From NCBI RefSeq assembly GCF_044324785.1, contig NZ_CP172127.1: 64,000 bases of DNA; one strand, 5' to 3'. Below the pieces are notes generated by a model that was not told the origin of the DNA, searched no databases, and saw only the letters and a program-made list of their open reading frames with translations. The translations under genes and the position numbers were made by a program. Source of the stretch: Escherichia coli (GTDB taxonomy: Bacteria > Pseudomonadota > Gammaproteobacteria > Enterobacterales > Enterobacteriaceae). Position 1 is the first letter of the stretch. Each line of letters opens with the position of its first letter. Below, piece after piece: positions 33,925 to 51,798 of this stretch.

Positions 33925-33926
33925 TG

Positions 33927-34775: not shown

Positions 34776-36225
34776 AGAGAATGCGGGCCAGCCGTTCCTG
34801 CAGATCGTCCGTGTTCATCTGAGGGTAGAGCTCCGCCAGTTCGCCCAGCAGCTCAGACGGGTTAACCCCGTTTTCGACCCGCTTAAACAGAGGTGCCAGG
34901 ACGGGTTCCAGCGTGCCATTTAACACACCTCCGTTCATCAGAATGTCCAGCGCGTCGTCAAGCTGCTGCTGAGCCTGAATATCGGCATCAATCGCCTCGG
35001 CAAATGACAGCGGCAGCATGTTATTCTGGCGTTCCGACGGTGGTGTCTCGTCAATATCGCCGTCCTGCAGCTGGTACTCACGCTTAAAGTATTGCGGGGT
35101 CAGACGCAGACCCGCCCGGGTGAGTTTTTCGTCGCGGGTGGCGCGGGTGTCATCAATGGTCTCCTGTTCCCACATGGCCCAGACCGGACACGGCACATCG
35201 CCGAAGTTCAGGGTGACCACCGTTCTGATAACCTGATTCACTGCTGCCTGAATGATGTCCGCATCCGCATCGCGGATATCAGCCGTTACCTCCAGCCCGG
35301 CCTGTGCAGAGGCCTTGTTACTGTTCGCTTCCGTGGTCTGATTCTGACCAAGTAATGCAATGGAGATCTCACTGCGTGACAGTGTGATCAGCTCGCGGAA
35401 TACCTCGCTGCTGTCCGCCTTACCATCCGCGGCTTTGAGTTCGATGCTGCTGTCATCGGGGATGGCGGCCACCGCGTCCTCCACCATCTGCTCCATGGAG
35501 TCCAGCAGTTTTTCAATCTCTGCATCATTTGCACCCCTCGGGTGCTTACCGATCACCCACGGGGAGCCAAACTTTTCGGCAAAGCGGAGCCAGAATTTCA
35601 TCCCGCCTTTCTTGAAGGCGACCGGCCAGAAGCACATGGACAGGTCCGGGAAACCGTAAGGATTGTCATACGAGGCATCCTGTGCCGGCACCACGAATTT
35701 TGACGGTGACAGCAGCTCACCCTCCACACCCGCATCACGCGCCCGGAAGCGCAGGCAGTTGTCCGTATCAAACTGAAACCACTCAGGCGGTTTGCCGACA
35801 ATATCCGTCACTGCCCACGCCCTGACCGAACGGCCCCACATGATTTCACAGGGCTGATACCCGTAGAGCACGGCATCACTCATCTCACCGATGATGCGGG
35901 ACAGATCCAGATCGTCGAGCATGTCGCGGATGAAACGGAAGACCCGGGCAGAAGCGTGACCGCGCTCCAGTCCACGCTCCAGTGATTTGAGCGCTGCTTT
36001 ACGTCTGCGGATACAGCCCCCGACCAGCGGGTCGGTGCGCAGTTCGCGGTAGATACGGATATCCCGTCCCTGAGCCTTGAGAATGGGATCAGGATTGGGC
36101 AGATACATGCCCAGTCCGTAAAAGTCGATCGCGCGGCTGCGGGAGGCAATCTGCGCGGTCAGTGATTTCTGAGGCTCAGAAAAAGCAACAAATTCATCGG
36201 GTGAAACCCAGATACCCCTCGCCAT
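34729..36225 (-). CDS. Portal protein (Mu gp29-like)
   Basis: 498 aa directly after large terminase. Confidence 0.8.
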   Translation of the reverse strand: MARGIWVSPDEFVAFSEPQKSLTAQIASRSRAIDFYGLGMYLPNPDPILKAQGRDIRIYRELRTDPLVGGCIRRRKAALKSLERGLERGHASARVFRFIRDMLDDLDLSRIIGEMSDAVLYGYQPCEIMWGRSVRAWAVTDIVGKPPEWFQFDTDNCLRFRARDAGVEGELLSPSKFVVPAQDASYDNPYGFPDLSMCFWPVAFKKGGMKFWLRFAEKFGSPWVIGKHPRGANDAEIEKLLDSMEQMVEDAVAAIPDDSSIELKAADGKADSSEVFRELITLSRSEISIALLGQNQTTEANSNKASAQAGLEVTADIRDADADIIQAAVNQVIRTVVTLNFGDVPCPVWAMWEQETIDDTRATRDEKLTRAGLRLTPQYFKREYQLQDGDIDETPPSERQNNMLPLSFAEAIDADIQAQQQLDDALDILMNGGVLNGTLEPVLAPLFKRVENGVNPSELLGELAELYPQMNTDDLQERLARILFVANIWGRLHERDNG

Positions 36226-37748
36226 CAGAATCCCTCCAGCATACGGGCCGCCTGACGACGACGGCGTGAGCTTGCCTTCACCGGCCCTTTGTTAATTTCA
36301 CGGCTGGCGAAATACGCCAGCGCCAGTGCGATGGCTGAATCCCCGTGACGTTTACCACCATCAGCCTTTGCTTTTGAGCGTTGCTCCGGCACGCGGGGGA
36401 CACCGTTCACCACCTGAACGGCCCGCAGGTCATCCAGTGTGTCTTCATCCTTTGGTAAGTCCACCAGGTTACCGTCTTCCAGTGCAGCTTTGACCGGAGG
36501 CATATGCTCCCGGTACCAGCCTTCGGTTGGCATCACCTGCTGAACCCGGCCGGAGCCGTAGCGCTGCATGGCGTATTCAGCCAGATAGGCACCATTACCA
36601 CGGGCATCAAACGCTGCACCCAGCAGACCGGGCAGGCCATCCATCAGATACCAGGTGATTTGCTCCTGCTGCCTGAACGGCACGTTACGCAACTCCAGTA
36701 CGAATGGCACGCGTCGTATCAGGTTCTTCTCCTGCAACAACGGGTAGTCCACCGACAAATCCCCGCTACGGCCAAAGTCACGCCCCAGAAAAGAGCGGGC
36801 ACCAGCGGGGAGCGCCTCCAGTAATGGTTTCAGATGCTCATCAAGCCAGTCCTGCGTCTCGCGGAAGCGAACCTCATCAGACAGCAGTTCATAACCTTCC
36901 TTGCAGGTCAGACGCAATACCGGCGTATCAGCGGACATGCGGGACTCTATCAGGGCTCGGGACAGCCAGGCACCGCCACCGTTGGCCGGAATACAGTCAA
37001 GCTCTTCGGATGCACCGGCACCGTAGAATTTGTACACCGACGCCATCCAGGCCTGCTCGGATGCCTCCGACCATTCCTTCCCGGTGCGCAGACAAACGCG
37101 CCGGAACAGCCCCTCAGATACGGCTTCCCGGAAAGTGATGCGATGTACGCTGCCTCCCTGACGTCCGGCACGGATATCCCCGATAAGCGTATTGAACGGA
37201 TTGTCGTCACCGTCATGGGTGGAGATAACGCGTACCTTTCCCCCCCAGATAAGCATCGCCAGCGCCGCTTTCAGCAGTTCGTCCAGTTGCTCATGGAACG
37301 CCGCTTCGTCGATAACAATAATACCCTGACGGCCACGCAGGTTAGACGGGCGGCTGGAGAGCGCAACAATACGAAAGCCGGAGTCAGGAAATTTGATGGT
37401 GTAAGTCCTGATGTGTTTGTCGTCGTCGTCCTCTTCCCAGAATCCTTCTTCAATTTCACTGGCCGCATAGTTGAATGCCCGTGCCCACATCGCACACGCC
37501 TGAATGTATTCGACGGTCATGTCCTGGTTATAAGCGATGTAATACACATTCATCCCGCCTGCTGGCGCAGAAGAGGCGGCGGTCAGTACGTTATCGGATG
37601 CCTCAGCCCATGTAATACCGGTACGACGGCTCTTTTCTATCACCTTAAGCGGAGAGGCATCTGCCACCCAGCGCTGCTGGTAGGGCAACAGAACGGGAGG
37701 GGCCTTATAACTCGCGGTGTCAGGAATGTGCGGCGGCAGCTCCGTCAT
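36225..37748 (-). CDS. Terminase large subunit
   Basis: 507 aa with ATPase-like motifs (GIIVIDEAAF) and C-terminal nuclease region. Confidence 0.8.
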   Translation of the reverse strand: MTELPPHIPDTASYKAPPVLLPYQQRWVADASPLKVIEKSRRTGITWAEASDNVLTAASSAPAGGMNVYYIAYNQDMTVEYIQACAMWARAFNYAASEIEEGFWEEDDDDKHIRTYTIKFPDSGFRIVALSSRPSNLRGRQGIIVIDEAAFHEQLDELLKAALAMLIWGGKVRVISTHDGDDNPFNTLIGDIRAGRQGGSVHRITFREAVSEGLFRRVCLRTGKEWSEASEQAWMASVYKFYGAGASEELDCIPANGGGAWLSRALIESRMSADTPVLRLTCKEGYELLSDEVRFRETQDWLDEHLKPLLEALPAGARSFLGRDFGRSGDLSVDYPLLQEKNLIRRVPFVLELRNVPFRQQEQITWYLMDGLPGLLGAAFDARGNGAYLAEYAMQRYGSGRVQQVMPTEGWYREHMPPVKAALEDGNLVDLPKDEDTLDDLRAVQVVNGVPRVPEQRSKAKADGGKRHGDSAIALALAYFASREINKGPVKASSRRRRQAARMLEGF

Positions 37749-38293
37749 GATACCACCCCCAGAATTTCCCGGCGCAGTGCCTGTACGGCTTCCGCAGAGA
37801 GCCCGCCCTTACGGGCAATTTTCTCGGCGGCAGCGGCAGCACGTTCAACCCTCTCTCTGACTTCTGCCTGATAGCGCTTGAGGTTGACCGAGGCGCGGGT
37901 CAGTGTGGCGATATTTTTTGAAGCCGTTGCCAGCAGTTTTGCCCGGGCGAAGGGATCGTCGTTTTCCCGCGACTCCTGCAGGCGCATCAGGATATCCGTC
38001 ATTTCGGTCTGGACGAGGGTTATCAGCCCGGCTGAACGGTCATCAGGATCGTCTCCGGCCTCCCGGGCAAGCAGACGCGCTGCCTCGGTTGCCGCCCGCA
38101 CCCGGGCCAGTTGCTGCTCCATTTTGTAGCCAAACCGCTGCAGGGAAGAGCGGGTGATGCTGTACCCCTTTTCCTTCAACAGACTTTCAAGCTCTGCATA
38201 GCCGGTGAAATTATTCTCCGTCAGTGCCCGCTCAAGCCAGCGACGGACCTCCTTCGGCAGAGAATCAATGCTGCTGCGACGTCCCATAATCAC
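37745..38293 (-). CDS. Putative terminase small subunit / DNA-binding packaging protein
   Basis: 182 aa, basic N-terminus, coupled to large terminase. Confidence 0.55.
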   Translation of the reverse strand: MIMGRRSSIDSLPKEVRRWLERALTENNFTGYAELESLLKEKGYSITRSSLQRFGYKMEQQLARVRAATEAARLLAREAGDDPDDRSAGLITLVQTEMTDILMRLQESRENDDPFARAKLLATASKNIATLTRASVNLKRYQAEVRERVERAAAAAEKIARKGGLSAEAVQALRREILGVVS

Positions 38294-38601
38294 TCACTCC
38301 AGTATTTTTCCGGGCGGGCAATACCGGGGCCGCATTCCACGGTGTATTCCACAATATCCACACCAAGGCGACTCAGATCGGCAAACCAGTCACCGGAAGG
38401 CCTCTTCTCCAGTTCCACCATCTTGCGATCTGCCAGGTAATCAAGCTCACGGCGCAGCTCCAGTTGCGTGGTGTCCGGGTAGATGGCGCGGGACACTTCC
38501 AGCAGCAGCGTCTCGCTGGCGGTATAAGGGCGGGTTTTGTTCAGGGCAACCAGCAGACTCCAGCGCAGGGATTCGCGGCGTACCCGGGTAATATCGACCA
38601 T
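38290..38601 (-). CDS. Hypothetical phage protein (103 aa)
   Basis: Coupled ORF between lysis and packaging genes. Confidence 0.45.
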   Translation of the reverse strand: MVDITRVRRESLRWSLLVALNKTRPYTASETLLLEVSRAIYPDTTQLELRRELDYLADRKMVELEKRPSGDWFADLSRLGVDIVEYTVECGPGIARPEKYWSE

Positions 38602-38927
38602 TATTGACCTCCGGTATTGCGGTACTGCTGTACCACTTCCAGTTTGTTGTAGAGCGCGTCCAGTTTGGCCTCGATGACTGTCTGGCCACGGATATAATCC
38701 TCGCGACGGACATAATTCAGCGGTAAATCCGCTTTAAATCGCATAAATTCTTTTTCCAGTTCGCCCCAGTTGGAGGCGGACTGTTGCAGGGCCTGCTCAA
38801 GGGAGGCGAATCGTGCCGCCTGGCGTTCTTCTGTTTTACTGAACAACCATTTGGCGAGCCCTCCCACAAACCCCATGAAGGTGAGCAAAAAACTCACCAC
38901 CGTCCAGAATTCAACCTGCAGTGTCAT
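38601..38927 (-). CDS. Small phage membrane protein (108 aa, one N-terminal TM helix)
   Basis: FWTVVSFLLTFMGFVGGLAKWLF hydrophobic segment. Confidence 0.45.
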   Translation of the reverse strand: MTLQVEFWTVVSFLLTFMGFVGGLAKWLFSKTEERQAARFASLEQALQQSASNWGELEKEFMRFKADLPLNYVRREDYIRGQTVIEAKLDALYNKLEVVQQYRNTGGQ

Positions 38928-39535
38928 TTCTGTAATCCTTCCCGTTCATCCAGTAGCGCGTTTATCTGGTTTCGCCAGCGACGACATTGCCCTGCGTTGT
39001 CGATGATGTTGGCAAGGACGTCAAGCTGGGAGACACCCGAATTGCGTAACCGGGCGTCAGCGGTTTCAGGTTGCCCGGTCGCTGCGCCAGTGCCGGTGCC
39101 AGCGGCGGCAACTGAGTCTGAATGACCGGTGTCGACGGATGCGTTGTCGTATCCGAGTGCGGCGTTGTACTGGCGCACGAAACCGCGAGTAAACACGCAC
39201 TCAATGGGATGGCTCTTACCTTTTTCATCAATCCAGCGCTGTGTGACATCGTTAATTTGCCCCTGTAGTTGTTTGTTCTGGTCCTCCAGTTGAGCAATCT
39301 GCTCAAGATAACCAGCTTCAGCCCGTTGCCCGGCGGCTACCTGCTCCTGATAACGCTCAGACCATGCGCGCAACGCCGCCACCTCACGCCGGGCCTGTTC
39401 TGCCCGGTATCCGTCAAAATCCGCCTGCAGGCGGCTGAGCGCCGCCTGACCGTCAGCGGAGGCCCGGTCGTGGCCTGTGCTGTATCCCAGCCACCAGATC
39501 GCCAGCAGGAAGGTGTTCAGGAGAATGGCCAGCAT
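38924..39535 (-). CDS. i-spanin (Rz-like)
   Basis: Start MLAILLNTFLLAIWWLGY (N-terminal TM) then coiled-coil-rich periplasmic domain; follows the endolysin. Confidence 0.6.
   Translation of the reverse strand: MLAILLNTFLLAIWWLGYSTGHDRASADGQAALSRLQADFDGYRAEQARREVAALRAWSERYQEQVAAGQRAEAGYLEQIAQLEDQNKQLQGQINDVTQRWIDEKGKSHPIECVFTRGFVRQYNAALGYDNASVDTGHSDSVAAAGTGTGAATGQPETADARLRNSGVSQLDVLANIIDNAGQCRRWRNQINALLDEREGLQK
38962..39228 (-). CDS. o-spanin (Rz1-like lipoprotein) embedded in +1 frame within the i-spanin gene
   Basis: MKKVRAIPLSACLLAVSCAS... signal peptide with lipobox-like LAVSC, Pro/Thr-rich body. Confidence 0.55.
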   Translation of the reverse strand: MKKVRAIPLSACLLAVSCASTTPHSDTTTHPSTPVIQTQLPPLAPALAQRPGNLKPLTPGYAIRVSPSLTSLPTSSTTQGNVVAGETR

Positions 39536-39563
39536 AATGACCCGCCACGGCAGCGACCGTAAC

Positions 39564-40301
39564 TTACGTACCCACACAGCTTGCCCCTCCCCATGAGAGA
39601 TAACGCGGGGCCAGCGTGAACAGGATGCGCTGGGGATAATGACGGTTCTCCCGCCAGCTGGCAGTGCTGCGTCCGGCATTCACCGTGGCGACATGACCAA
39701 ACCAGCGGGTGCTGTCCAGCCCTTTTTGTGATGCAAGCCGCCTGTCCCGCTGTACCCAGCCCAGACCACCGTTATAGCCCGACAGTGTCATGGCCATACG
39801 CTCGCAGTCACTGGCGGCGCTGACGCGCTGCCACAGCCAGCGGTCATAGCTGACCAGCGCCCGGATGGCCCATGCCGGATTAAATGGCTCACGGCTGTTA
39901 AGCCCCGGCATCAACTGACTTATCCAGTCGGCGGTGGCGGGCATGAACTGCGCCAGTCCCTGAGCGCCAACCGGCGAGATCGCATCAGGTCGCCAGCCGC
40001 TTTCCTGATGCAGTTGCGCAGCGAAATCAGCCACCGGCGCAGACAGTCCCCATTCAAGCCGGGCATTACGGATCACATCATCGCGATACTGCAGCGCTGC
40101 CTGCGGAGGCTGCGCTGCGCGGGCCTGACTGAAGAAGCCGCCACACCAGAGCAACATTGCGACAAAGAATACCCGTGCCATATGAACCAGAAAGGTCCCG
40201 GCGCGGACTGACAGGCGTTCGGTTCTGATGAAGACCCTAAAGGCTTCGAAAGCCAGTTTCAGGGACATGCATACAATCCAGGTGATCTGCGGCCAGTTCA
40301 T
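39564..40301 (-). CDS. Endolysin, lytic transglycosylase (SLT-domain) type, possibly signal-anchored
   Basis: SLT-like motif ...QLHQESGWRPDAISPVGAQGLAQFMPATADW...; hydrophobic N-terminal segment. Confidence 0.75.
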   Translation of the reverse strand: MNWPQITWIVCMSLKLAFEAFRVFIRTERLSVRAGTFLVHMARVFFVAMLLWCGGFFSQARAAQPPQAALQYRDDVIRNARLEWGLSAPVADFAAQLHQESGWRPDAISPVGAQGLAQFMPATADWISQLMPGLNSREPFNPAWAIRALVSYDRWLWQRVSAASDCERMAMTLSGYNGGLGWVQRDRRLASQKGLDSTRWFGHVATVNAGRSTASWRENRHYPQRILFTLAPRYLSWGGASCVGT

Positions 40302-40303
40302 GA

Positions 40304-40654
40304 TTAAAGCCCCATCGCAACAGCCAGACAGACCGCTGCAACAATCAGTGCACGGCGGATTAACGCAGCAGAAAACACCAGGTGAAGGCCGGTCTGTACC
40401 GGGAAACGCCCATCAGCCATCAGCCTGTCGTCATGTTTCAGGTACTGACCGGGACGGGCTTTGGGGAAGAGCGAACGGTCAAGCCAGTAACCCAGCACTG
40501 CTGCCAGCGTGATGAGTGCCAGCTTGTAGATCACAACAGGCAACTGCTGTGGCGAGACCAGAGCGATGGTGCCCAGCAACAGCACTGAGGTCAGCAGCCA
40601 GCCGCTGAGGCGAGGTTTTTTAACAGGGGGAATGAATTTTTTCAGGTTTTTCAT
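40304..40654 (-). CDS. Putative holin (small membrane protein, 2-3 TM helices)
   Basis: SD AGGAGA before ATG 40654; first gene of the late leftward operon, immediately upstream of the endolysin. Confidence 0.5.
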   Translation of the reverse strand: MKNLKKFIPPVKKPRLSGWLLTSVLLLGTIALVSPQQLPVVIYKLALITLAAVLGYWLDRSLFPKARPGQYLKHDDRLMADGRFPVQTGLHLVFSAALIRRALIVAAVCLAVAMGL

Positions 40655-40784
40655 GTGTGTCTCCTTGTCTGGTGGAGACAGCATCACAAATACAGGGCGC
40701 GAAGGATTTTAAAGCGCGTTAAGAGAGCCGGGGATACGGGATGTGCAGGATAAACGATGAATTATTCACAGAGGAGAATACGAT

Positions 40785-41528
40785 ATGACGCAGACACTGA
40801 ATCCGGTCATCACTGTCACCGTGTCCGGTCCTGTGGGCAGCGGTAAAAGTTACATATTGGCGCGGATAGAGGAAGTGGTGAAACAGGAATTCGGGGGCAG
40901 CGTCATTGTCGATGCTGCAGACGTAGATGATGAGCGGCGTATGAGTGGCGATGATCTGACGACCTGGCAGAAGCCACGGGGTGGCACAGTGATCAGGCTG
41001 GAGGAATACACGGGACAGGGCCTGTTGTCATACGGCGAGGAGCGTATCTGTCGGACGAATGAGCTGCTGGATGTTATATGCCCCACGGGCCGGCAACCCT
41101 GGATACTGCCCGATGCACTGCATGCCACCATTGCGGCACTGATGACAGTTTACGATCAGGAGCTGCTCATGAAGGAGCTACGTAAACTCACCGGTCAGCC
41201 AACAGAATGTTTTTCTGCCCCGAAGTACGGGAAACAGGAACACATCCCGGTGAACACGCTCCCCGTTAACCAGCCTCCCCGGTTCTTCGACGAATACATT
41301 CTGACACCGGAAAATAAAGCTGAGCACGAAGAGATCAAAGCGGCGTTGTTCCGGGAAATCAGGAAGATTGCTGAAATGCAACTGGGGGGCGGGCTGGACA
41401 GAGTGATGGCGAGAGGAGAATGGGAGTCGCTGTTTGAAAGAGTTTCCCCGGAATTACTTCCCCTCGCACTGGCTATCGGGATTATGCAGACAGCGGATAA
41501 ACCTCACTTACGTTCATTAAACACGTAA
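40785..41528 (+). CDS. P-loop NTPase-like protein of unknown function (247 aa)
   Basis: Walker A GPVGSGKS at residues 15-22, rest without recognisable motif; SD GAGGAG 8 nt upstream. Confidence 0.5.
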   Translation: MTQTLNPVITVTVSGPVGSGKSYILARIEEVVKQEFGGSVIVDAADVDDERRMSGDDLTTWQKPRGGTVIRLEEYTGQGLLSYGEERICRTNELLDVICPTGRQPWILPDALHATIAALMTVYDQELLMKELRKLTGQPTECFSAPKYGKQEHIPVNTLPVNQPPRFFDEYILTPENKAEHEEIKAALFREIRKIAEMQLGGGLDRVMARGEWESLFERVSPELLPLALAIGIMQTADKPHLRSLNT

Positions 41529-41908
41529 CGCATAATCCGGGATACGCATTCAGCGATGACTGCATTTTCACCGGTTTTTACTGCATCCAGAAGTGACTCT
41601 TTAAATGGTGCGGGCCGGGGCTGCAGAAGGGTCGGCGTGGCATTGAGCAGACGGAGCGTTTTTTCCGTGAGGACGACATCAGCCGCTCCCACAGCCAGCA
41701 ACTGAGAGTAACGAATATAGCTGTTATCCCGAAGCCATATCAGCGTATCAATAAAATACCGGCACTTTTTCTGGTCGTGATCAACCTGGTCCGGGATATC
41801 GAAAAAACCAGAATAAATCAAAACCTGAGGTGCCGGATGCGTGTTCAGTAATCGGCAGAATATTTTGCCGGTGAGTGCATAAAAATCATCATTTAAGGAG
41901 TGCATCAT
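41504..41908 (-). CDS. Hypothetical protein (134 aa)
   Basis: ORF whose ATG (41906-41908) overlaps the divergent ATG of the next gene (41907). Confidence 0.4.
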   Translation of the reverse strand: MMHSLNDDFYALTGKIFCRLLNTHPAPQVLIYSGFFDIPDQVDHDQKKCRYFIDTLIWLRDNSYIRYSQLLAVGAADVVLTEKTLRLLNATPTLLQPRPAPFKESLLDAVKTGENAVIAECVSRIMRYVFNERK

Positions 41909-42122
41909 GAATCCCCGATTAACGTTAACAGAACATCAGCGCCGTGCTGAAGCAGTGAACAATGTTCTGGAAGATATTATCCGGTTACATCGCGGAGAAC
42001 TGAGTGTCTGTCGTGCCGCTTTTCATTTTCAGGGAATACAAAAGCAGTTTGATACTTCTGTTTTTGCAGAAGGTATTACTTATGCCCTGGACCGGATAAG
42101 GTCAGAAAATCGCCCCGGATAA
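41907..42122 (+). CDS. Hypothetical small protein (71 aa)
   Basis: SD AAGGAG 6 nt upstream of ATG. Confidence 0.4.
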   Translation: MNPRLTLTEHQRRAEAVNNVLEDIIRLHRGELSVCRAAFHFQGIQKQFDTSVFAEGITYALDRIRSENRPG

Positions 42123-42313
42123 TCCCTAAACCACATTAACAGAAATCCCACTATCCCTGCCGCATCATGAAAGAACGACCAGCCCGGTGCTTCGGACCCA
42201 CCGGGCTGGCCATCGTCCCACAGAAGTGGCTGTGAGCCGACCGAGGTTCAGTCAGTCTCGCGAGACCAGACTAGCCTGCCATATTTTTAATAATTGTAAA
42301 AGGCTTACAGATT

Positions 42314-43078
42314 ATGAAAATGAAGACATTACCCATCGTTCCATGGATTGGTGGCAAACGTCGCCTGGCAAAACACATCCTGCCGCTGTTTCCGGCGCAT
42401 GAATGTTATGTGGAGCCGTTTTGTGGGGCAGCAGCGCTCTATTTTCTTAAGACACCCGGCAAGATCGAAGTCATCAATGATATCAACGGTGAACTGGTGA
42501 ATCTGTACCGGGTGGTAAAGCATCACCTGGAAGAATTTGTCCGCCAGTTCAAATGGGCGCTGGTCAGCCGTCAGATCTACAAATGGCTGCAGATCACCCC
42601 GGAAGAAACACTGACGGATATCCAGCGTGCGGCACGGTTCTACTACCTTCAGAAGCAGGCGTTTGGCGGCAAGGTGGCAGAGCACAGCTTCGGTACCTCC
42701 ACCACATCCCCGCCACGCTTCAACCTGCTGCGTATTGAAGAAGAACTGTCAGCAGCACACCTGCGGCTTTCCAGAACAGTCATAGAACACATGGACTGGC
42801 AACAGTGCATTGAGCGTTATGATCGTCCGCACACACTGTTCTACTGCGACCCACCGTACCTGGGTACGGAAGGCTATGGTGTGGATTTTCCTGAAGGGAA
42901 CTACTCGCGGCTGGCAGAGCTGGCCCGGTGCATCAGAGGAAAAATGATAATTTCGGTGAACGATATCCCACAGATGCGCGAGGTGTTCACTGGACTGAAC
43001 ATACAGACAGTGAACATCAACTACAGTCTGGCGGGGAAATCTACGCCGCGCCGTGAACTGGTAATCTGCAACTTCTGA
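42314..43078 (+). CDS. DNA N6-adenine methyltransferase (Dam-like)
   Basis: N-terminal WIGGKRRLAKHILPLFP and catalytic DPPY motif (YCDPPYLG). Confidence 0.85.
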   Translation: MKMKTLPIVPWIGGKRRLAKHILPLFPAHECYVEPFCGAAALYFLKTPGKIEVINDINGELVNLYRVVKHHLEEFVRQFKWALVSRQIYKWLQITPEETLTDIQRAARFYYLQKQAFGGKVAEHSFGTSTTSPPRFNLLRIEEELSAAHLRLSRTVIEHMDWQQCIERYDRPHTLFYCDPPYLGTEGYGVDFPEGNYSRLAELARCIRGKMIISVNDIPQMREVFTGLNIQTVNINYSLAGKSTPRRELVICNF

Positions 43079-43085
43079 AACAAAA

Positions 43086-43108
43086 CCGGAAAGCACAATG
43101 CTTTCCGG
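43086..43108. terminator. Bidirectional hairpin between dam-like gene and repressor gene
   Basis: Perfect 9-bp stem CCGGAAAGC/GCTTTCCGG with 5-nt loop; T-rich run on the minus-strand side. Confidence 0.45.
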
Positions 43109-43194
43109 TAAACCAAACAACTTCCACTATGTCACTGGCGATGTTTTCTGAAAGCATCCAGATCAACCACCTGTCCTTTGTGTCCAGGTCAAAA

Positions 43195-43533
43195 TCAGCC
43201 TGCGAGTTTGCTTGGTTTGGGTTGAATGAAGACTTTGCCGACCTCAAGAATTGCCCTCCGTTGTTCGGGGCTCATTTCGTCGAATGCATCCATTAACTCT
43301 TTCTTTTCTTGTGACACATAAGGTGCAACAACAGGCTGACTCCGCACCCCAGTAACTACATACAAAATATCTACACCGATTTCTGATAGTGCAGATAACT
43401 GCACTGCAGTAGGAGAAGTGCGATCTTTTTCCCAATCAATGAAAGTTCTCTTTGCCACACCTATAGCATCAGCCAACCCTTGCTGTGTAAGAGATAGACG
43501 CTCTCTTTCTTCTTTAATACGTAACCCGATCAT
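43195..43533 (-). CDS. Phage repressor, HTH XRE/cI-type
   Basis: MIGLRIKEERERLSLTQQGLADAIGVAKRTFIDWEKDRTSP is a canonical XRE HTH; divergent from the early operon. Confidence 0.7.
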   Translation of the reverse strand: MIGLRIKEERERLSLTQQGLADAIGVAKRTFIDWEKDRTSPTAVQLSALSEIGVDILYVVTGVRSQPVVAPYVSQEKKELMDAFDEMSPEQRRAILEVGKVFIQPKPSKLAG

Positions 43534-43557
43534 GTGAGTTTTTCTGCACTCTTTAAG

Positions 43558-43586
43558 TTGACTGGTGAGGTAATCTGCACCATAAT
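43558..43586 (+). promoter_or_regulatory. Putative sigma70 early promoter with overlapping repressor operators
   Basis: -35 TTGACT (43558-43563), 17-bp spacer, -10 CATAAT (43581-43586); direct repeat TCTGCAC at 43543-43549 and 43574-43580. Confidence 0.4.
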
Positions 43587-43633
43587 CTATCACACATAAG
43601 GCAAACATCATTGCATCAACAAAGGAGACAACG

Positions 43634-43822
43634 ATGACTGCAGAACAAGTCAAAGCTCTCTTCCGCCAGCGCGGGATCACTTTCACCCGCTGGGCAGAAG
43701 AAAACGGCTACAACCGCAATGAGGTATACCGCGTTCTCAATGGGCAGACCAAAGCCCGTTACGGTAAATCCCATGAAATCGCCGTGAAGTTGGGGCTGAA
43801 ATCAACAGCTCAGGCAGCCTGA
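43634..43822 (+). CDS. Small DNA-binding protein (Ner-like position)
   Basis: 62 aa basic protein, first gene of the rightward early operon, divergent from repressor. Confidence 0.4.
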   Translation: MTAEQVKALFRQRGITFTRWAEENGYNRNEVYRVLNGQTKARYGKSHEIAVKLGLKSTAQAA

Positions 43823-43868
43823 AGATTTTGAGTCTTTGTAAAAGGTTATCACATATCGCAAAAGAGGT

Positions 43869-44183
43869 ATGCAGATGAGTAAGACGAATGTTTCAAGCTC
43901 CGGCAGTCGCATCCTCCGGGTACTCAAAGCGCTGCGCGGTCATGCCCTGAACGGTATTTCCAACGGTGAACTGGCGGCAGCACTGCACGAGTCACCGGCA
44001 AACATCAACCGGGCACTCAACACCCTCATTGAAGAAGGGTTGGCCCTGAAACTGGAAAACGGGCGTTTCGCGCCGGGCATCCAGTTACTGCAGATCGCTA
44101 TGGCCCACAGTAACGAGATGGCACGTGCACAGGATCGCATTAACGAAATCAACCAACGTGTCATTTCAGGTAGTCGTTTGTAA
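43869..44183 (+). CDS. Putative winged-helix DNA-binding regulator (104 aa)
   Basis: ILRVLKALRGHALNGISNGELAAALHESPANINRALNTLIEEGL resembles a wHTH. Confidence 0.4.
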   Translation: MQMSKTNVSSSGSRILRVLKALRGHALNGISNGELAAALHESPANINRALNTLIEEGLALKLENGRFAPGIQLLQIAMAHSNEMARAQDRINEINQRVISGSRL

Positions 44184-44193
44184 GGAGTAATAA

Positions 44194-45105
44194 ATGGGAC
44201 GCACCAAATCACCGATTAACACTGAACTGAACGCCGAGGTACCGCTGTCGGATGATCTCAATGTCAGTCTGAACGCCATGACACAGCATCGTATGGAGAT
44301 CATGCAGCAGTTTGGCGATGGTCAGCCCTATGAGCGTGATCGCATAGTTCATGAGGCTCGGTTTTATATGGCACAGAGCGCTGAGGCCATGCTGGAAGCA
44401 GGTAAACGACTTATTATTCTCAAAGAAAATGAACCTCACGGGGACTTTGTTGGAATTGTAGAAGAACAACTTGGTCTGCATGTGCGCGCAGCACAACGAA
44501 TGATGAAAGCATCTTTGAAATACCTTTCACCAAAACTAGAGCCAAAAGCGACAACGTTGTCGCTTTTAGGTAAGGCAAAATTATTTGAACTTGTTGCTGA
44601 AGATGACGACGACCTTGCTGAACTGGCCGACGGTGGCACAGTTGCCGGACTGACGCTTGACGATGTTGATCGCATGTCAGTACGTGAATTGCGTCAGGCC
44701 CTGCGCGAAGCGCGCGAAACCAACGCAGCACAACAGCGCGTACTCGCCGACAAAAATGAAAAAATAGACTCACTCTCCACCAGACTGGAGAAGAAATCCC
44801 GTATTCAGCCACCTGAGCCTGATGAAGAGGTGAAGAAACTGCGGGCAGAAGTGACCGCGTTAGCGGTTGAGGCGGAATCTGCCATCGCCGTTCGACTGTC
44901 CAGCGCTTTTGAGACGCTGTGCGCATATTGTGCTGAAAACATGATTGATACCCCCAGAGACTTCATGGCAGGCCTGGTCTGTCAACTGGAAAGCACAGCG
45001 CGTAGCCTGCGCTCCACATTTGACCTGCCGGACGAGCCAACAGGCAATGCAGCGCCTTCATGGCTGACTGAGCCGACGCCACAGATTAACGGGCTGGAGG
45101 CATAA
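44194..45105 (+). CDS. Hypothetical early protein (303 aa), possibly DUF3102-like
   Basis: Acidic, coiled-coil-rich; located just upstream of transposase A. Confidence 0.4.
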   Translation: MGRTKSPINTELNAEVPLSDDLNVSLNAMTQHRMEIMQQFGDGQPYERDRIVHEARFYMAQSAEAMLEAGKRLIILKENEPHGDFVGIVEEQLGLHVRAAQRMMKASLKYLSPKLEPKATTLSLLGKAKLFELVAEDDDDLAELADGGTVAGLTLDDVDRMSVRELRQALREARETNAAQQRVLADKNEKIDSLSTRLEKKSRIQPPEPDEEVKKLRAEVTALAVEAESAIAVRLSSAFETLCAYCAENMIDTPRDFMAGLVCQLESTARSLRSTFDLPDEPTGNAAPSWLTEPTPQINGLEA

Positions 45106-45108
45106 CCA

Positions 45109-46878
45109 ATGAATGCTGCCCTGACTGAACGACTGGTTTATGTCGCCCGCGCGGCACGTGACGCGGGGCATGGTAAACGCGGCGCAGTATACGACGCTGC
45201 CTGTGCTGAACTTGGCATGTCCCGCGCCACTCTGCTGCGCAGGCTGAAGGAGGTATCTGTGACTGATAAACGCAAAAAACGCGCCGATGCCGGGCGCAGC
45301 GCCCTGACCCGCGACGAAGCCGCGCTGATATCTGCCACACTGCGTGAGGCCACCCGCAAGAACGGTAAGCGTCTCTATTCCATCGCGGATGCAGTGGAAA
45401 CCCTGCGGGCTAACGGCTTTATATCCGCAGGCAGAACAGATGAAACCACCGGTGAGTTTTTCCCGTTGTCCGAAGATGCCATCAGCCGAGCCCTGCGTAA
45501 CTATGGCCTGCACCCGGAACAACTGGATGCCCCTGCGCCGCATACCGAAGTGGCCAGTCTGCATCCCAATCATGTCTGGCAGATTGACGCCTCACTCTGC
45601 ACGCTTTACTACCTGAGCAATGGACATAAAGGGCTGCAGGTGATGGACAGCGCGAAGTTCTACAAGAACAAGCCCGCTAACCTTGCCCGTATCGCCAGTG
45701 ACCGCGTGTGGAGTTACGAGATTACCGACCATGCCAGCGGCTGGATTTACGTTGAGTATGTGACGGGCGCGGAATCAGGTGAGAACCTGTGTTCTGTGCT
45801 TATCAACGCCATGCAGGAGCGTGGCGGCGCAGACGTGCTGCACGGTGTGCCGAAAATACTCTATCTCGACCCCGGCTCGGCAAACACCGCGGGTATGACG
45901 AAAAACATGTGCCGCTCACTGGGCATCGACCTGATAGCGCACAAGCCGCATAACGCCCGCGCCACCGGACAGGTGGAAAAGGCGCGGGACATTATCGAAC
46001 GCAAGCTGGAGCCGGGTCTGAAGTTCCGGCCGGTTCACAGTCTGGAAGAACTCAACGCGCTGGCCGCGAAATGGCGCAGCCACTTTAACGCCACGGCTGT
46101 TCACAGCCGCCACGGTAAAACCCGCACGGATATCTGGCTGAAGATTACTGCTGAGCAGCTGAAAAAAGCGCCTTCCGTTGAGGTATGTCGTGAACTGGCT
46201 GTGGCGGCACCAGAACTCCGCAAAGTCACGCCAAAACTTCGTGTCTCGTTCCGGGGCACTGAATTTGACGTATCAACGGTACCGGGCGTACTGGTTGGTG
46301 AAAAACTGATGATTACCCGTAACCCGTGGCGCAGCGATGTGGCACAGGTGGTTCTGACCGGTGAGGACGGCCACGAGACGTTCTTCCTGGTCGAAGAGGT
46401 CAGAAAGAACGAGTTTGGCTTTGCTGAAGGCGCGGCGGTATTTGGCGAAAGTTACAAAGCCCTGCCGGAAACCCCGGCGCAGATGGCGGCAAAAGAAACC
46501 GAAGCGCTGGTCACCGGTACAGACAACGCCGCAGATGCAGCTGCCGCACGCAAGGCGAAGGCGCTGCCGTTCGGCGGGCGGCTTGACCCGTATAAACATA
46601 TCGACGACACCACACTTCCGGCCTATATGCCGAAGCGTGGTCAGGCCTCTGACGTACGCGGGCCGCGCACTGAACAACGTCCCATGACTTATGTGGAGGC
46701 CGCGAAAGCCCTGCGCGATAAGTTCAGCGCCAACGGCTTTACCTGGACGCTGGAACATTACCGCCAGTTAACGGCACAGTATCCGGACGGCGTACCGGAA
46801 GCCGCACTGGATGAAGTCATGGCCACGCTGACCACGCCGGCCCGCAGCAGCGTTATCAGTATTGTTAACGGCAACTGA
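45109..46878 (+). CDS. Mu-type DDE transposase (A protein)
   Basis: 589 aa with integrase-core region (HVWQIDASL...) followed by the B-like ATPase gene. Confidence 0.8.
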   Translation: MNAALTERLVYVARAARDAGHGKRGAVYDAACAELGMSRATLLRRLKEVSVTDKRKKRADAGRSALTRDEAALISATLREATRKNGKRLYSIADAVETLRANGFISAGRTDETTGEFFPLSEDAISRALRNYGLHPEQLDAPAPHTEVASLHPNHVWQIDASLCTLYYLSNGHKGLQVMDSAKFYKNKPANLARIASDRVWSYEITDHASGWIYVEYVTGAESGENLCSVLINAMQERGGADVLHGVPKILYLDPGSANTAGMTKNMCRSLGIDLIAHKPHNARATGQVEKARDIIERKLEPGLKFRPVHSLEELNALAAKWRSHFNATAVHSRHGKTRTDIWLKITAEQLKKAPSVEVCRELAVAAPELRKVTPKLRVSFRGTEFDVSTVPGVLVGEKLMITRNPWRSDVAQVVLTGEDGHETFFLVEEVRKNEFGFAEGAAVFGESYKALPETPAQMAAKETEALVTGTDNAADAAAARKAKALPFGGRLDPYKHIDDTTLPAYMPKRGQASDVRGPRTEQRPMTYVEAAKALRDKFSANGFTWTLEHYRQLTAQYPDGVPEAALDEVMATLTTPARSSVISIVNGN

Positions 46879-46888
46879 GGAGGGAAAC

Positions 46889-48055
46889 ATGCTGGTACTG
46901 AAGCAGCAACTGAAAGAAGCCCGTATTCCACAGGCGGTGGTGGCGAGAGCTGTCGATGTTTCTGAGGCCACGCTGGCCCAGATTGTGAATCATAACGCGT
47001 GGCCCCGCACCAGCCCCGGAGAAGTGCGCCGGCGTCTTGCGTCCTGGCTGGAAAGTCAGGGGATTGATACAACGAAGAGTTTTGATGCTGTACAGGGCGC
47101 GGCCACGCCCCGTACAGCGGGTACCACAGATAAAACGAGCCTCAGTGAGGAAGAGAATATGTTACTCAAAAAACAGGTGTTATTTCCAGCAACCAAAAAA
47201 GCGTTTGGTCTTTTCCGTGACCCGTTCGCCGACGAAGCCATGCAGGGTTCTGATGATGTGTTCACCACCCCGGATATTCGCTACGTGCGTGAGGCGTTGT
47301 ACCAGACAGCCCGTCATGGTGGGTTTATGGCCGTCATCGGTGAGTCCGGTGCGGGTAAATCCACGCTGCGCCGCGACCTGACTGAACGTATCAACCGCGA
47401 GAATGCGCCGGTAATTGTTATCGAGCCATACATCATCGCTATGGAAGACAACGATGTGAAAGGGAAAACCCTGAAGGCAGCAGCGATTGCCGAAGCCATT
47501 ATCAGTACCATCGCACCACTGGAAAGCATCAGACGCAGTCAGGACGCCCGCTTTCGCCAGTTGCATCGCGTCCTGAAAGACAGCAGCCAGGCGGGGTTCA
47601 GCCACGTTCTGGTGATTGAGGAGGCCCACAGTCTGCCCATTCCGACACTGAAACACCTCAAACGCTTTTTTGAGCTGGAGTCCGGTTTCAAAAAACTGCT
47701 GTCCATCGTGCTGATTGGCCAGCCGGAACTGGCGACAAAACTGTCTGAACGCAATATGGAAGTCCGTGAAGTCGTTCAGCGCTGTGAGGTGGTCGAACTT
47801 CTGCCTCTGGACAATAACCTTGAAGAGTTTCTGACGTTCAAACTGCAACGGGCCGGTAAACAACTGACGGACATTATGGACGCCAGCGCAGTGGATGCCA
47901 TACGTGCCCGCCTGAGCAATCCGGGAAGTCATCGTAAAAATATGGTCAGCCTGCTGTATCCGCTGGCCGTCAGTAACCTGGTAATAGCCGCCATGAATCT
48001 GGCCGCTGAAATCGGGGTTCCACAGGTCAACGCTGACGTTGTCAAAGGGGTTTAA
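46889..48055 (+). CDS. Transposition ATPase (MuB-like AAA+ target DNA activator)
   Basis: Walker A VIGESGAGKST, Walker B-like HVLVIEEAH; SD GGAGGG before ATG. Confidence 0.8.
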   Translation: MLVLKQQLKEARIPQAVVARAVDVSEATLAQIVNHNAWPRTSPGEVRRRLASWLESQGIDTTKSFDAVQGAATPRTAGTTDKTSLSEEENMLLKKQVLFPATKKAFGLFRDPFADEAMQGSDDVFTTPDIRYVREALYQTARHGGFMAVIGESGAGKSTLRRDLTERINRENAPVIVIEPYIIAMEDNDVKGKTLKAAAIAEAIISTIAPLESIRRSQDARFRQLHRVLKDSSQAGFSHVLVIEEAHSLPIPTLKHLKRFFELESGFKKLLSIVLIGQPELATKLSERNMEVREVVQRCEVVELLPLDNNLEEFLTFKLQRAGKQLTDIMDASAVDAIRARLSNPGSHRKNMVSLLYPLAVSNLVIAAMNLAAEIGVPQVNADVVKGV

Positions 48056-48057
48056 TA

Positions 48058-48327
48058 ATGAAATCCACCACAGGTATCAACCAGCAAATCAGCAAAGTGC
48101 AGTCAGCCATTATGGCGCTTAAGGCGACGAACACGGATGTACAAAGCATCACCATCAGGGGTAACAAACCTGTCATCCGCGTTTCCCGGAGTGCGCATTG
48201 CATGCGCATGCTTGAGCAGGGAAAGGCCTGTTATCTGTATACCGGTCATGACCACAGGGGACATTTCCGTCAGGGCGTTTTCGAACTGCACGGCTGTCGC
48301 GTCGTGTGGCCGGAATCTTTGTGGTAA
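48058..48327 (+). CDS. Hypothetical early protein (89 aa)
   Basis: Coupled to B stop. Confidence 0.4.
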   Translation: MKSTTGINQQISKVQSAIMALKATNTDVQSITIRGNKPVIRVSRSAHCMRMLEQGKACYLYTGHDHRGHFRQGVFELHGCRVVWPESLW

Positions 48328-48354
48328 TCAGCACAACAGGAGGAGTCATAAAAT

Positions 48355-48885
48355 ATGGCAAAAAGTACAAAAGGGGCAAAACGTATCAAAGCCGCAGCAG
48401 CACTCTGGGTGCCGGGGACACGCGAAGAGGTCATTGAGGGAATCAGACTGCTTGGTGACGCGCAACGTGAACTGGTCAGGGCTGAAACAGAAATGAATGA
48501 CACCATTGGCGACATCACCGCACGTTATGCCCCGCTCACCGAGAGCCTGAAAAAACGCATGGCCGAACTGCAGTCCGGTATTCAGACATGGTGTGAGGCA
48601 CACCGTGATGAACTGACCGGCAACGGGAAGGTGAAGTTCGCTAACCTCACCACCGGCGAGGTGCAGTGGCGAAACCGTCCGCCGTCAGTCAGTATCCGTG
48701 GGGCGGATAATGTTATTGAATTACTGAGACGTCTGGGGCTTGAGCGCTTTATCCGTGTAAAGGAGGAAATAAATAAAGACGCCATCCTGAATGAAAAGGA
48801 CGCCGTGAAAAATATTCCCGGTATTACCATAAAAAGTGATATTGAGGATTTTTCAATAATTCCTTTTGAGCAGAATGTGCAGTAA
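48355..48885 (+). CDS. gam: Host-nuclease inhibitor Gam
   Basis: 176 aa closely matching Mu Gam along its length (AKRIKAAAALWVP...IGDAQRE...ETEMND...WCEAHRDELT...IRVKEEINKDAIL...DFSIIPFEQ). Confidence 0.85.
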   Translation: MAKSTKGAKRIKAAAALWVPGTREEVIEGIRLLGDAQRELVRAETEMNDTIGDITARYAPLTESLKKRMAELQSGIQTWCEAHRDELTGNGKVKFANLTTGEVQWRNRPPSVSIRGADNVIELLRRLGLERFIRVKEEINKDAILNEKDAVKNIPGITIKSDIEDFSIIPFEQNVQ

Positions 48886-48981
48886 AAACAGCATATAAGC
48901 TATTTAAAACAGCCTTTTCTTTTTTATTCCGGCATCAGCGCCGTGGGCTTCTGCACGCCGGAAACAGAGGAGAATTAAATC

Positions 48982-49176
48982 ATGATATTTAAATGTATTC
49001 AGTGCGAGAGGGATATAACAGCCCTGCGTTTTCACAGCGCCATCGCCGTGATGTCCGGTAAGTACCACGTACCTGCAGTACGCGTCACCCTGGTCTGTCC
49101 GTACTGCAGTCAGCATTTTTCGGCAGACGTGCCCGTCATGGAATTCTCCCGCCCTGACAGGGAGGACTCGCAATGA
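48982..49176 (+). CDS. Small zinc-ribbon protein (64 aa)
   Basis: Two CxxC pairs (CIQC ... CPYC). Confidence 0.4.
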   Translation: MIFKCIQCERDITALRFHSAIAVMSGKYHVPAVRVTLVCPYCSQHFSADVPVMEFSRPDREDSQ

Positions 49177-49445
49177 TTACCCCACAGGAAGCACGACAGC
49201 GCACCCGAACCCTTGTTGAACACTATGTCAACGAGTGTGAATGCCGCGACCTCACCGATGTGAAGCACGTCCTGACGGCGCTAATCAGCATGACCGCTCA
49301 GGCCATTGTGGCGACCAACGGAAAGGCGGCTGCCCTGCAGGTACTGGTGAACACACTCACCCACACGGCAGAGCACGATGTGCCGTACCGGATGGAAACC
49401 ACTGCAGAAGGCGGCCTGAACATCACCGTCGACCGGAAACACTGA
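49173..49445 (+). CDS. Hypothetical early protein (90 aa)
   Basis: Coupled ORF. Confidence 0.4.
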   Translation: MITPQEARQRTRTLVEHYVNECECRDLTDVKHVLTALISMTAQAIVATNGKAAALQVLVNTLTHTAEHDVPYRMETTAEGGLNITVDRKH

Positions 49446-49454
49446 GGGCGCGGC

Positions 49455-49760
49455 ATGACACGGAACACCGAACTCACCCGCACCGCCCTCTACCGTCTGG
49501 CCCTGCAGCGTTTCGGGCCGGACGCACAGGCCCTGAAACTGACAGAAGAGGCCGCTGAACTGGCGGCCAGTGCCGCCCGCAACCTGAACGGACAGGGCAG
49601 CGAAAGTGACCTCGCGGCAGAGCTGGCAGACGTGGAAATCATGACAGAGCAGCTGCGCCTTCAGGGAATGGACCGGCTGATTGACTTCCACAAACAGAAA
49701 AAACTGGAACGCCTTGCCGCACGGCTGGGCGTCATGTACACCGGAGATACTGAACAATGA
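49455..49760 (+). CDS. Small MazG-like nucleotide pyrophosphohydrolase-type protein (tentative)
   Basis: 101 aa helical protein with EEAAELAA...AELADVEIM pattern reminiscent of MazG-type NTP-PPase. Confidence 0.4.
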   Translation: MTRNTELTRTALYRLALQRFGPDAQALKLTEEAAELAASAARNLNGQGSESDLAAELADVEIMTEQLRLQGMDRLIDFHKQKKLERLAARLGVMYTGDTEQ

Positions 49761-50440
49761 CAGACCAGGATAAACACATTGAGAAACTGAAAAAGTTGCT
49801 GGCGCTGGCCGCATCCGGCAACCCTCACGAGGCCGCTCTGGCACTGCGCCGTGCCCGTAAACTGATGGATGTTCACGGCATCACACATTCCGACATCGCC
49901 ATGAGTGATATTGATGAAACCATCAGTCACTACTGGCCGACAGGCAGCCTCCGTCCACCGCGCTACATGCTGGGCCTGATGAACATCATCCGCGAGGCAT
50001 TTGGTGTTAACTCCATCATTCACCCCGGCACATATCCGGGTGTGGGGTTCTACGGCAACCGGGAACGGGCTGCACTGGCTGCGTACACCTGGGAAGTGCT
50101 GGCCCGCCAGCTGAAAAAGGCGCGTCAGCAATATATCAGCGCACAGAACAAAAGAATAAAAACTGCCACCCGTACCAGCCGTGGTGACCAGTTTGCTGAA
50201 GGCTGGGTGCTGGCCGTTATCAGTGAAATACAGTCCTTCGCCCTGACCGATGACGAACGTGAACTGATGCAGCAGTGGCTGGAACATAAATACCCGCAGA
50301 CGCAAACCACCAGGGCGCGTAAACCGGGAAGAAGCCGCAATGGCGACGCCTCGCGCTATGCGGGGTTTCTTGAAGGGCAGAACGTCAGACTGCACCGCCC
50401 GGTCAGTGGGCAGGAACAACAGAAACTGGAGGCCAGATGA
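49757..50440 (+). CDS. Hypothetical early protein (227 aa), DUF2786-like N-terminus
   Basis: N-terminal IEKLKKLLALAASGNPHEAALALRRARKLM pattern. Confidence 0.45.
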   Translation: MTDQDKHIEKLKKLLALAASGNPHEAALALRRARKLMDVHGITHSDIAMSDIDETISHYWPTGSLRPPRYMLGLMNIIREAFGVNSIIHPGTYPGVGFYGNRERAALAAYTWEVLARQLKKARQQYISAQNKRIKTATRTSRGDQFAEGWVLAVISEIQSFALTDDERELMQQWLEHKYPQTQTTRARKPGRSRNGDASRYAGFLEGQNVRLHRPVSGQEQQKLEAR

Positions 50441-50667
50441 TTACGCTATCAGGTAAAAGCCGGAAATTAAAAGCCTGCCGAATATCTGCCAGATACCTTT
50501 TTGCCCGCGCCTTTTTTAAGAACGTCAGGCCGGGGATCACAATTGGTGTTATTGCCGGACGCGAACAGGTTGAAAAATACATGTCAGGTGCATGGTGGAA
50601 TAACGACCCTGTCATTGCTGCCCGTAATATTCATATCAGTTGGGGGGATATTCAGAATGACGGCTGA
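50437..50667 (+). CDS. Hypothetical small protein (76 aa)
   Basis: Coupled ORF. Confidence 0.3.
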   Translation: MITLSGKSRKLKACRISARYLFARAFFKNVRPGITIGVIAGREQVEKYMSGAWWNNDPVIAARNIHISWGDIQNDG

Positions 50668-50872
50668 ATCTGTTGTATGTGCCCTGTTCTGGTATTGTTT
50701 TGTCGGTTGGTGTACTGCTGAACTGCACCGCCGTTCAGGGTTTTATTCACGTTACAGTGGTGCTGGCTACTGGATTAGCTGGTCGGTGATGTTCCTGTGC
50801 TGGCCTGTGGCGCTTCCTTTATATGTCGATTATATCGGTGGCGCAGGTAAAAGGAGCAACGATGATGACTAA
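50664..50872 (+). CDS. Small membrane protein (2 TM)
   Basis: VVCALFWYCFVGWC and WSVMFLCWPVALPLYV hydrophobic segments. Confidence 0.35.
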
Positions 50873-51684: not shown

Positions 51685-51730
51685 TTCCTGCTTGTTAAAG
51701 TCCTTTCAAAAATCTCCTTATTGTATAAAA

Positions 51731-51760: not shown

Positions 51761-51798
51761 ATGCTCTCTCTTTAGTATTCAGGATGCAGGGAGAAAAT

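Follow-up and report, generated by a model that had tools for sequence, protein, structure and literature searches.

Why would a temperate phage carry a DNA adenine methyltransferase, with no nuclease as its partner, right beside its immunity repressor? The question is raised by a Dam-family gene, dam, in a BcepMu-like transposable prophage of Escherichia coli, which lies within a 64,000-nucleotide stretch of contig NZ_CP172127.1 (RefSeq assembly GCF_044324785.1; hereafter the window, with positions counted from its first letter). The methylase is not new: it is common and already catalogued, and by itself it adds little. The predicted structured RNA gene that lies next to it is a new observation, for which comparison of related loci establishes existence, strand, covariation and linkage to dam. 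This RNA control cassette, with its link to the Mu regulator Com, is the part that we consider worth following. We think it somewhat probable that dam encodes a late-lytic self-protection (anti-restriction) methylase, silenced until then and controlled by the adjacent RNA, and functionally like the com-mom system of phage Mu.

In every enterobacterial relative, conservation is higher in the 145 nt upstream of dam than in the gene's coding sequence, and this upstream region folds better as minus-strand RNA (-50.5 kcal/mol) than as plus-strand RNA (-34.2 kcal/mol). An alignment of 20 enterobacterial sequences has standard pairs in 98.6% of pair cells and compensatory change at 10 pairs, values that none of 500 shuffles reached. 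The structure extends to 49 diverse sequences, whose alignment was fitted to a covariance model and therefore favours structure: 94% of cells are paired, where shuffles give 76%, compensatory change occurs in 27 of the 37 pairs, and covariation is 0.541 against 0.233. Because G-U pairs are asymmetric between the strands, they fix the RNA on the minus strand, which holds 177 G-U pairs and 45 non-pairs, whereas the dam-sense strand holds 22 and 200. The same counts, with the weaker fold, led us to reject a plus-strand 5' leader of dam.

The predicted minus-strand transcript (~120 nt) begins near 42286, ends near 42170 and abuts the start of dam; the RNA occurs once in the window. The -35 element of its predicted promoter overlaps the dam ATG, and the -10 element adjoins the dam Shine-Dalgarno sequence. 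This geometry is kept in distant relatives, for example as TTGCCA-16-TAAACT in phage phiE125, and the first positions of the covariance model are a -10-like hexamer (TACAAT, TGCAAT, TAAACT or TATTAT) 16 nt from the dam ATG. With a conserved structure opposite dam and a predicted promoter and terminator of its own, the RNA appears to be of the cis-encoded antisense, or countertranscript, kind.

Does it belong to a described family? No Rfam family reaches its gathering score for the RNA in the window or in the relatives tested, including 16 further loci. The nearest is RF00236, ctRNA_pGA1, with 44.4 bits in one relative (L082) against a gathering score of 45; the copy in the window scores 17.6. 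Like the RNA described here, ctRNA_pGA1 has two hairpins and a terminator and is transcribed against the leader of the gene that it regulates, but it is a plasmid countertranscript in a rep gene context, whereas the RNA upstream of dam stands in a phage methylase context and has an additional 5' hairpin domain. A match to Xoo8, a small RNA from the lpxC-ftsZ intergenic region, was set aside as chance (21.9 bits against a gathering score of 90), and a search for the "D12-methyl" RNA motif returned nothing relevant. Two other interpretations of the region were rejected. The palindrome GTCTCGCGAGAC is not a repeated operator, being present in a single copy in the window. The position of the RNA between dam and the holin gene in minimal BcepMu-like loci had suggested a leader or attenuator of the late lysis operon; the RNA, however, follows dam into phiE125-like and other non-Mu contexts, and the holin gene has a promoter block of its own.

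We surveyed 80 IMG/VR phage loci with Dam proteins 64-99% identical to that of the window. In 65 of them, a covariance model built from the enterobacterial sequences finds a full-length RNA that immediately precedes dam and lies on the other strand. These 65 include phiE125-type lambdoid phages and loci with the cassette in a head or tail gene region; late structural or lysis genes are the usual surroundings of the cassette in relatives. A homologue of the Com zinc ribbon (PF10122, E 1.4e-14) separates the RNA from dam in 17 of the 80 loci. The conserved unit is the RNA gene and dam, in some cases with com between them, and it occupies late or cargo positions in unrelated phages. The window itself has no com by tblastn, and the RNA was not found in BcepMu, which has no dam. 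The Burkholderia phages phiE125 and phi1026b are an example: their gp27 DNA adenine methylase is 65% identical to the dam product, and the same RNA immediately precedes its gene on the other strand (L006, 3847-3976, E 2.5e-10), yet these are lambdoid siphoviruses in which dam, unlike in the window, stands downstream of the lysis genes and is co-directional with them.

In Mu, too, the DNA-modification genes of a transposable phage are under elaborate negative control, as we propose here, and the 17 loci with Com recreate the com-mom order, with Com preceding a methyltransferase in the place of Mom. The predicted RNA promoter, leftward and overlapping the start of the modification gene, also recalls momP2 of Mu. 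By contrast, Mom is an acetamido-transferase of the acyltransferase superfamily and the dam product a Rossmann-fold S-adenosylmethionine (SAM) methyltransferase; mom lies at the right end of its prophage, whereas dam is central in the prophage of the window; and we know of no structured antisense RNA for mom. As a separate observation, in one clade of relatives (L027-L034, IMG/VR contigs of 35-42 kb with Dam 72-75% identical) the RNA-dam cassette is the last feature, after the tail genes, which is the position of mom in Mu.

One part of the RNA may contact its neighbour directly. The segment GGCUUACAG (42302-42310) in the dam initiation region nearly repeats the 5' arm of hairpin 5 of the RNA, and is therefore complementary to the 3' arm. 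The arm occurs in nine variants, and the initiation region, whether of dam or of com, changes in step with the hairpin (for example CACAG, CGCAG, UGCAG, CACGG and CCAGC). Cognate pairing, at -7.94 kcal/mol, exceeds non-cognate pairing, at -6.16 kcal/mol; the permutation p values are 0.0004 for energy and 0.008 for match.

The enzyme that this RNA adjoins is readily placed. The dam open reading frame (ORF) is real and encodes a Dam-family methyltransferase with the Dam fold, far beyond what chance would give: its product matches PF02086 (MethyltransfD12) with E 5.9e-29 and 102 bits against a Pfam cutoff of 22, and the NCBIfam model TIGR00571, "Dam family", just above threshold, with 117.4 bits against 114.85. 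The D12 class is recognized by a (D/N)PP(Y/F) motif IV and an FxGxG SAM-binding motif I. The first is whole, as DPPY at residues 179-182 (YCDPPYLG), and invariant in 25 aligned relatives; the second reads EPFCGAAA at residues 33-40, with F36 and G38 invariant and A40 instead of G in the third position. Their order, motif I N-terminal and motif IV C-terminal, is that of the alpha class. The AlphaFold2 model (predicted local distance difference test 89.2, predicted template-modelling score 0.88, with lower confidence in the recognition-hairpin region) superposes on E. coli Dam with a template-modelling (TM) score of 0.78 (PDB 4rtj; Foldseek E 4.6e-16), followed by Mcbe1, DpnM and T4 Dam; by sequence, the closest solved structures are DpnM and E. 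coli Dam. The preliminary description, made from the DNA alone, had named an adenine methyltransferase of the Dam family with an undamaged catalytic motif, and family models, fold and the intact DPPY all agree with it. To judge from its sequence, the enzyme is functional-looking and of the M.EcoMIV type.

M.EcoMIV (EC958_1101, WP_000783854) is the methylase of prophage Phi2 in the E. coli sequence type (ST) 131 strain EC958. The dam product is identical to it at 251 of 254 residues, and the two genes hold the same syntenic place in a BcepMu-like prophage, between three small ORFs and a helix-turn-helix (HTH) repressor gene; the prophages differ by the three substitutions in the methylase, by the repressor allele and by the insertion site. 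Forde et al. (2015, PMC4659465), whose paper does not mention the adjacent RNA, classed M.EcoMIV as an orphan "Dam homolog" of type II that carries PF02086 and is borne on a prophage. In the EC958 lysogen, in mid-log growth in lysogeny broth, it was transcribed significantly below host dam, and the single-molecule real-time methylome of EC958 held no extra motif and none assignable to M.EcoMIV; its REBASE listing is putatively asymmetric, with no characterised homologue above 65% identity (PMC4659465). Similar silent "Dam-like" prophage enzymes have been reported in ST101 and O111 strains, and no motif was assigned to a 34%-identical homologue in methylome data for Campylobacter CJIE1. Such enzymes are abundant. 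Of 5426 complete E. coli genomes, 634 match a 1.6-kb query that spans dam and the repressor gene; 439 phage records match dam, 9208 cluster representatives match its product at E <= 1e-10, and 7940 of the 8000 candidates scored in the clustered protein collection do so at the same threshold.

More distant counterparts are silent as well. Hin1523, Hia5 and Nma1821 are, like the dam product, Dam-related DPPY enzymes of Mu-like prophages; they replace mom in FluMu-type prophages and are non-specific adenine methyltransferases (Drozdz et al. 2012, PMC3299994). Even mitomycin C leaves them silent in the host, and protection of phage DNA was proposed as their role (PMC3299994). By the published description, the Hin1523/Hia5 family is set apart as only remotely related to Dam, being about 15% identical to bona fide Dam and found only by iterated PSI-BLAST (PMC3299994), whereas the dam product matches PF02086 directly.

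How might these pieces fit together? In the reading that we favour, dam would be a self-contained cassette in a cargo slot between the immunity gene and the lysis and late operon, held off in the lysogen and made in lytic growth, when replicated phage DNA would be methylated before packaging and so protected from restriction. The RNA of ~120 nt would be transcribed leftward from a promoter placed on the ribosome-binding site and start codon of dam. RNA polymerase on that promoter may occlude dam, the 3' arm of hairpin 5 (CUGUGGG) may pair with GGCUUACAG and block dam translation, or the brake may combine promoter occlusion and pairing with the initiation region. In some relatives, Com, as a translational activator, would add a second lock. 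The system would be analogous in function to com-mom of Mu and to the mom-replacing methyltransferases of other Mu-like prophages. That dam would stay silent until lytic growth is suggested by the low transcription of M.EcoMIV in the lysogen, the silent FluMu-type methyltransferases (PMC3299994), the link to Com and the promoter over the dam start. An anti-restriction or late function had already been proposed in the preliminary description; it is plausible, and the RNA, the Com link and the late placement of the cassette strengthen it, although we infer the role itself, and likewise when dam is expressed, how the RNA acts and which sequence the enzyme targets.

Several points weigh against this reading. 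The covariation between hairpin and initiation region rests on only nine sequence types, and the complementarity is equally compatible with an intramolecular helix in a long 5' untranslated region of dam. The predicted RNA start lies ~14 nt upstream of the Shine-Dalgarno sequence, so the RNA does not simply overlap the ribosome site as an antisense. Near dam, neither a Mor/C-type site nor a second copy of the late-promoter block beside the holin gene was found. The 65%-identical phi1026b homologue has reads in RNA sequencing data from a Burkholderia lysogen (PMC2920897). And if the target is GATC, the enzyme would be redundant with host Dam, and protection would then extend only to MboI/DpnII-type restriction enzymes or to Dam-negative hosts.

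A further-reaching form of the argument, possible and in our judgement doubtful as a whole, takes the RNA as an undescribed, widespread family, a dedicated controller that would act by occlusion together with pairing of its hairpin to the start of dam or com, with Com adding a mom-like system of several locks and with an enzyme specificity that is not plain GATC. Tight control would follow in that case because asymmetric or relaxed specificity would be hazardous to the lysogen.

The label "Dam-type" of the preliminary description holds for family and fold only. E. coli Dam shares with the dam product its Pfam/TIGRFAM family, the motif order (motif I, recognition region, DPPY) and the fold, but the two are only ~22-25% identical. 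In the Dam-DNA structure attributed to Horton et al. in 2006, GATC is reportedly read by K9, N120, L122, R124 and P134. These residues align with P10, G118, K120, A122 and S132 in the dam product, K9 thus being replaced by P10, and the positions vary across the subfamily. The recognition hairpin of E. coli Dam, [YF]-N-G-L-x-R ... P-[FY]-G-R-Y, is retained as a Dam-type hairpin in DpnM; the dam product has F-G-G-K-V-A ... S-P-P-R-F instead. In the alignment, GATC-reading residues of the EcoDam/T4Dam/DpnM type are not conserved in the dam product, and GATC specificity therefore cannot be assumed. On this comparison a GATC target is one possibility, and relaxed specificity is only a possibility; the phiE125 homologue is annotated as similar to M.AlwI. 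Site statistics do not help: observed over expected GATC is 0.60 for the prophage, against 0.53-0.61 for its flanks, and since the depletion is equal, it carries no signal.

These data bear directly on a second explanation, which we regard as rather unlikely, that dam encodes a "booster" GATC methylase which tops up GATC methylation of phage DNA, as this transposes and replicates fast, against MutH nicking, or times Dam-sensitive promoters or transposase binding, and does not serve restriction evasion. The TIGR00571 threshold is reached and the best structural matches are GATC enzymes; phage GATC Dam enzymes are common (T4, P1, VT2), and the prophage holds 111 GATC sites, 10 of them in the cargo/dam region. 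The EcoDam residues that read GATC, however, are not conserved across the subfamily, the putatively asymmetric REBASE listing with no characterised homologue above 65% and the M.AlwI-like annotation point elsewhere, and GATC is no more depleted in the prophage than around it.

A role in lysogenic conversion, in which the prophage would express the methylase in the lysogen and so alter both the methylation and the gene expression of the host, seems to us distinctly unlikely. It is close to what the preliminary description proposed when it took the position beside the repressor to mean that the enzyme may be expressed in the lysogen and alter the host methylome. The gene does occupy a variable cargo ("moron") slot beside the immunity gene, the Burkholderia lysogen reads of the phi1026b homologue fit such expression, and a GATC activity, if GATC is the target, would be masked by host Dam in methylomes of E. 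coli. The EC958 data nevertheless undercut the idea, the 99%-identical M.EcoMIV being transcribed significantly below host dam in a genome with no additional motif (PMC4659465). Nor does adjacency speak for lysogen expression: dam and the repressor gene are not co-transcribed, because they are convergent and separated by a terminator, and the dedicated antisense RNA, with Com in relatives, argues for silencing. Very unlikely, finally, is an addiction pair resembling toxin-antitoxin systems, in which an unstable antisense RNA would be the antidote to a harmful methylase and would stabilise the cassette or the prophage with no protection of phage DNA: an adenine methylase that is overproduced or relaxed is toxic or mutagenic, the RNA and dam are passed on as a unit across unrelated phage backbones, and the RNA has the architecture of antisense regulators and antitoxins, with ctRNA_pGA1 nearest and a faint, sub-threshold likeness to SymR and PtaRNA1, but SymR (21 against 61 bits) and PtaRNA1 (15.6 against 47) are far below threshold, and com-dam operons and late-region placement fit a lytic function better.

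If control of dam by the adjacent RNA is correct, it would reach beyond this prophage. Methylome studies of bacteria routinely find prophage "Dam homologs" that are silent and have no motif assigned to them, and a conserved antisense RNA, sometimes with Com, would explain that silence. Removing the RNA promoter or the leader would then unlock silent methylases and make their specificity readable. The logic of com-mom, in which a dangerous DNA-modification enzyme is kept under several locks until late lytic growth, would extend to a large family of SAM methyltransferases on unrelated phage backbones, and a well-supported RNA family would be added to the catalogue of phage regulators.

Table 1. 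Positions in the window of dam, the predicted RNA and the surrounding prophage features
Feature	Positions	Strand	Details
dam	42314..43078	+	ORF call, ATG start, 254 aa; D12-class/Dam-family N6-adenine DNA methyltransferase, M.EcoMIV-type orphan enzyme
dam translation initiation region	42299..42316	+	AAAGGCUUACAGAUUAUG
Predicted structured countertranscript RNA gene	42161..42298	-	covariance-model match
Predicted sigma-70 promoter of the RNA	42293..42320	-	-35 TTTTCA (42320-42315), -10 TACAAT (42298-42293); consensus match and conservation
Palindromic hairpin of the RNA	42255-42266	-	
Hairpin 5 of the RNA	42217-42236	-	3' arm CUGUGGG
GC-rich terminal hairpin of the RNA	42179-42209	-	followed by CGUUCUUUCA, U-rich tail
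Intrinsic-terminator-like hairpin	43085..43109	-	11 bp and T-run on minus strand; between the convergent repressor and dam genes
HTH (DicA/cI-like) repressor gene	43195..43686	-	heteroimmune, mosaic part of prophage
Early operon start	43634..48055	+	Ner-like HTH, IclR-type HTH, DUF3102 protein, rve transposase (45109-46878), MuB-like ExeA ATPase (46862-48055)
Mor-family gene	51286-51684		
Variable cargo slot	40785..42122	.	between RNA gene and holin gene; three ORFs of unknown function
Holin gene and conserved probable late-promoter block	40304..40760	-	holin 40304-40687; TTAACGCGCTTTAAAATCC at 40704-40722
Whole BcepMu-like transposable prophage	14452..52792	.	38,341 bp; ends TGATGCGCC... and ...TCTGATCA; comparison with copies at other sites
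6-bp target duplication GTTCCC	14446-14451 and 52793-52798		direct repeat flanking prophage

The element that carries dam is a transposable phage, as had been supposed: it is classed as Bcepmuvirus, carries rve transposase, MuB-like ATPase, Gam, GemA and Mor genes, occupies different insertion sites in different genomes and is flanked by the GTTCCC duplication. Both of its ends start with TGAT and share the motif GATAAATG 13-14 nt from the tip, probably the transposase binding sites. In its layout of divergent early and late blocks it is syntenic with BcepMu and with the isolated phage PhiKM, whose dam region is 96% identical. The late genes, on the minus strand, extend leftward from the holin gene (40687) as far as the tail-fibre and invertase region, and the early operon continues past the MuB-like ATPase gene with Gam, GemA and Mor. 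At the junction of the two blocks lies dam, 117 bp from the convergent repressor gene, and hence adjoining the immunity region as first described. At the nucleotide level the repressor region (43225-43582) matches neither EC958 Phi2 nor PhiKM, and the adjoining 1.4 kb (43582-44981) is only 85% identical to them, against 94-99% for the remaining prophage; the three look like heteroimmune variants of one phage.

The orphan status of dam also stands, no nuclease-like neighbour having emerged from profile searches while the neighbours themselves turn over and dam stays. The cargo slot encodes a 247-aa protein with an N-terminal P-loop (plus strand, phrog_3787), a 134-aa protein (minus strand, phrog_2266) and a 71-aa protein (plus strand, phrog_4490); these three and the repressor gave no nuclease or restriction match in Pfam, PHROGs, PADLOC, NCBIfam or PDB sequences. 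The cargo ORFs are absent or replaced in related BcepMu-like loci that keep dam, the neighbours of dam also differ in KP12, phiE125 and other loci, and BcepMu has other genes in this slot and no dam. As a trio they occur only in some relatives (L008-L010), with the slot empty or holding different genes in others, and they could be superinfection-exclusion or defence cargo. A second variable slot, of 0-2.4 kb, lies between dam and the repressor gene in L011, L014, L020 and other loci; its equivalent in the window, 43079-43194, is the empty 117-bp interval.

Other observations concern the rest of the prophage. The block upstream of the holin gene (40704-40760, TTAACGCGCTTTAAAATCC ... ATTTGTGATGCTGTCTCC) accompanies that gene in all BcepMu-like loci and has a single copy in the window; it is probably a late promoter, possibly Mor-dependent. 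At the right end, ~1.1 kb of cargo (51700-52792), which includes a 236-aa ORF at 51721-52431, is present in AR_0081 and absent from EC958 Phi2. The C-terminal segment of the tail-fibre gene beside the recombinase/invertase gene (15169-16351 and 16544-17885) is inverted relative to EC958 Phi2 and corresponds to the invertible host-range segment already described for Phi2. The tape-measure gene (23632-26844) contains tandem 261-bp repeats at 24233-25028, recognized from self-matches offset by 261 bp, and is 261 bp longer than in EC958 (3213 against 2952 nt).

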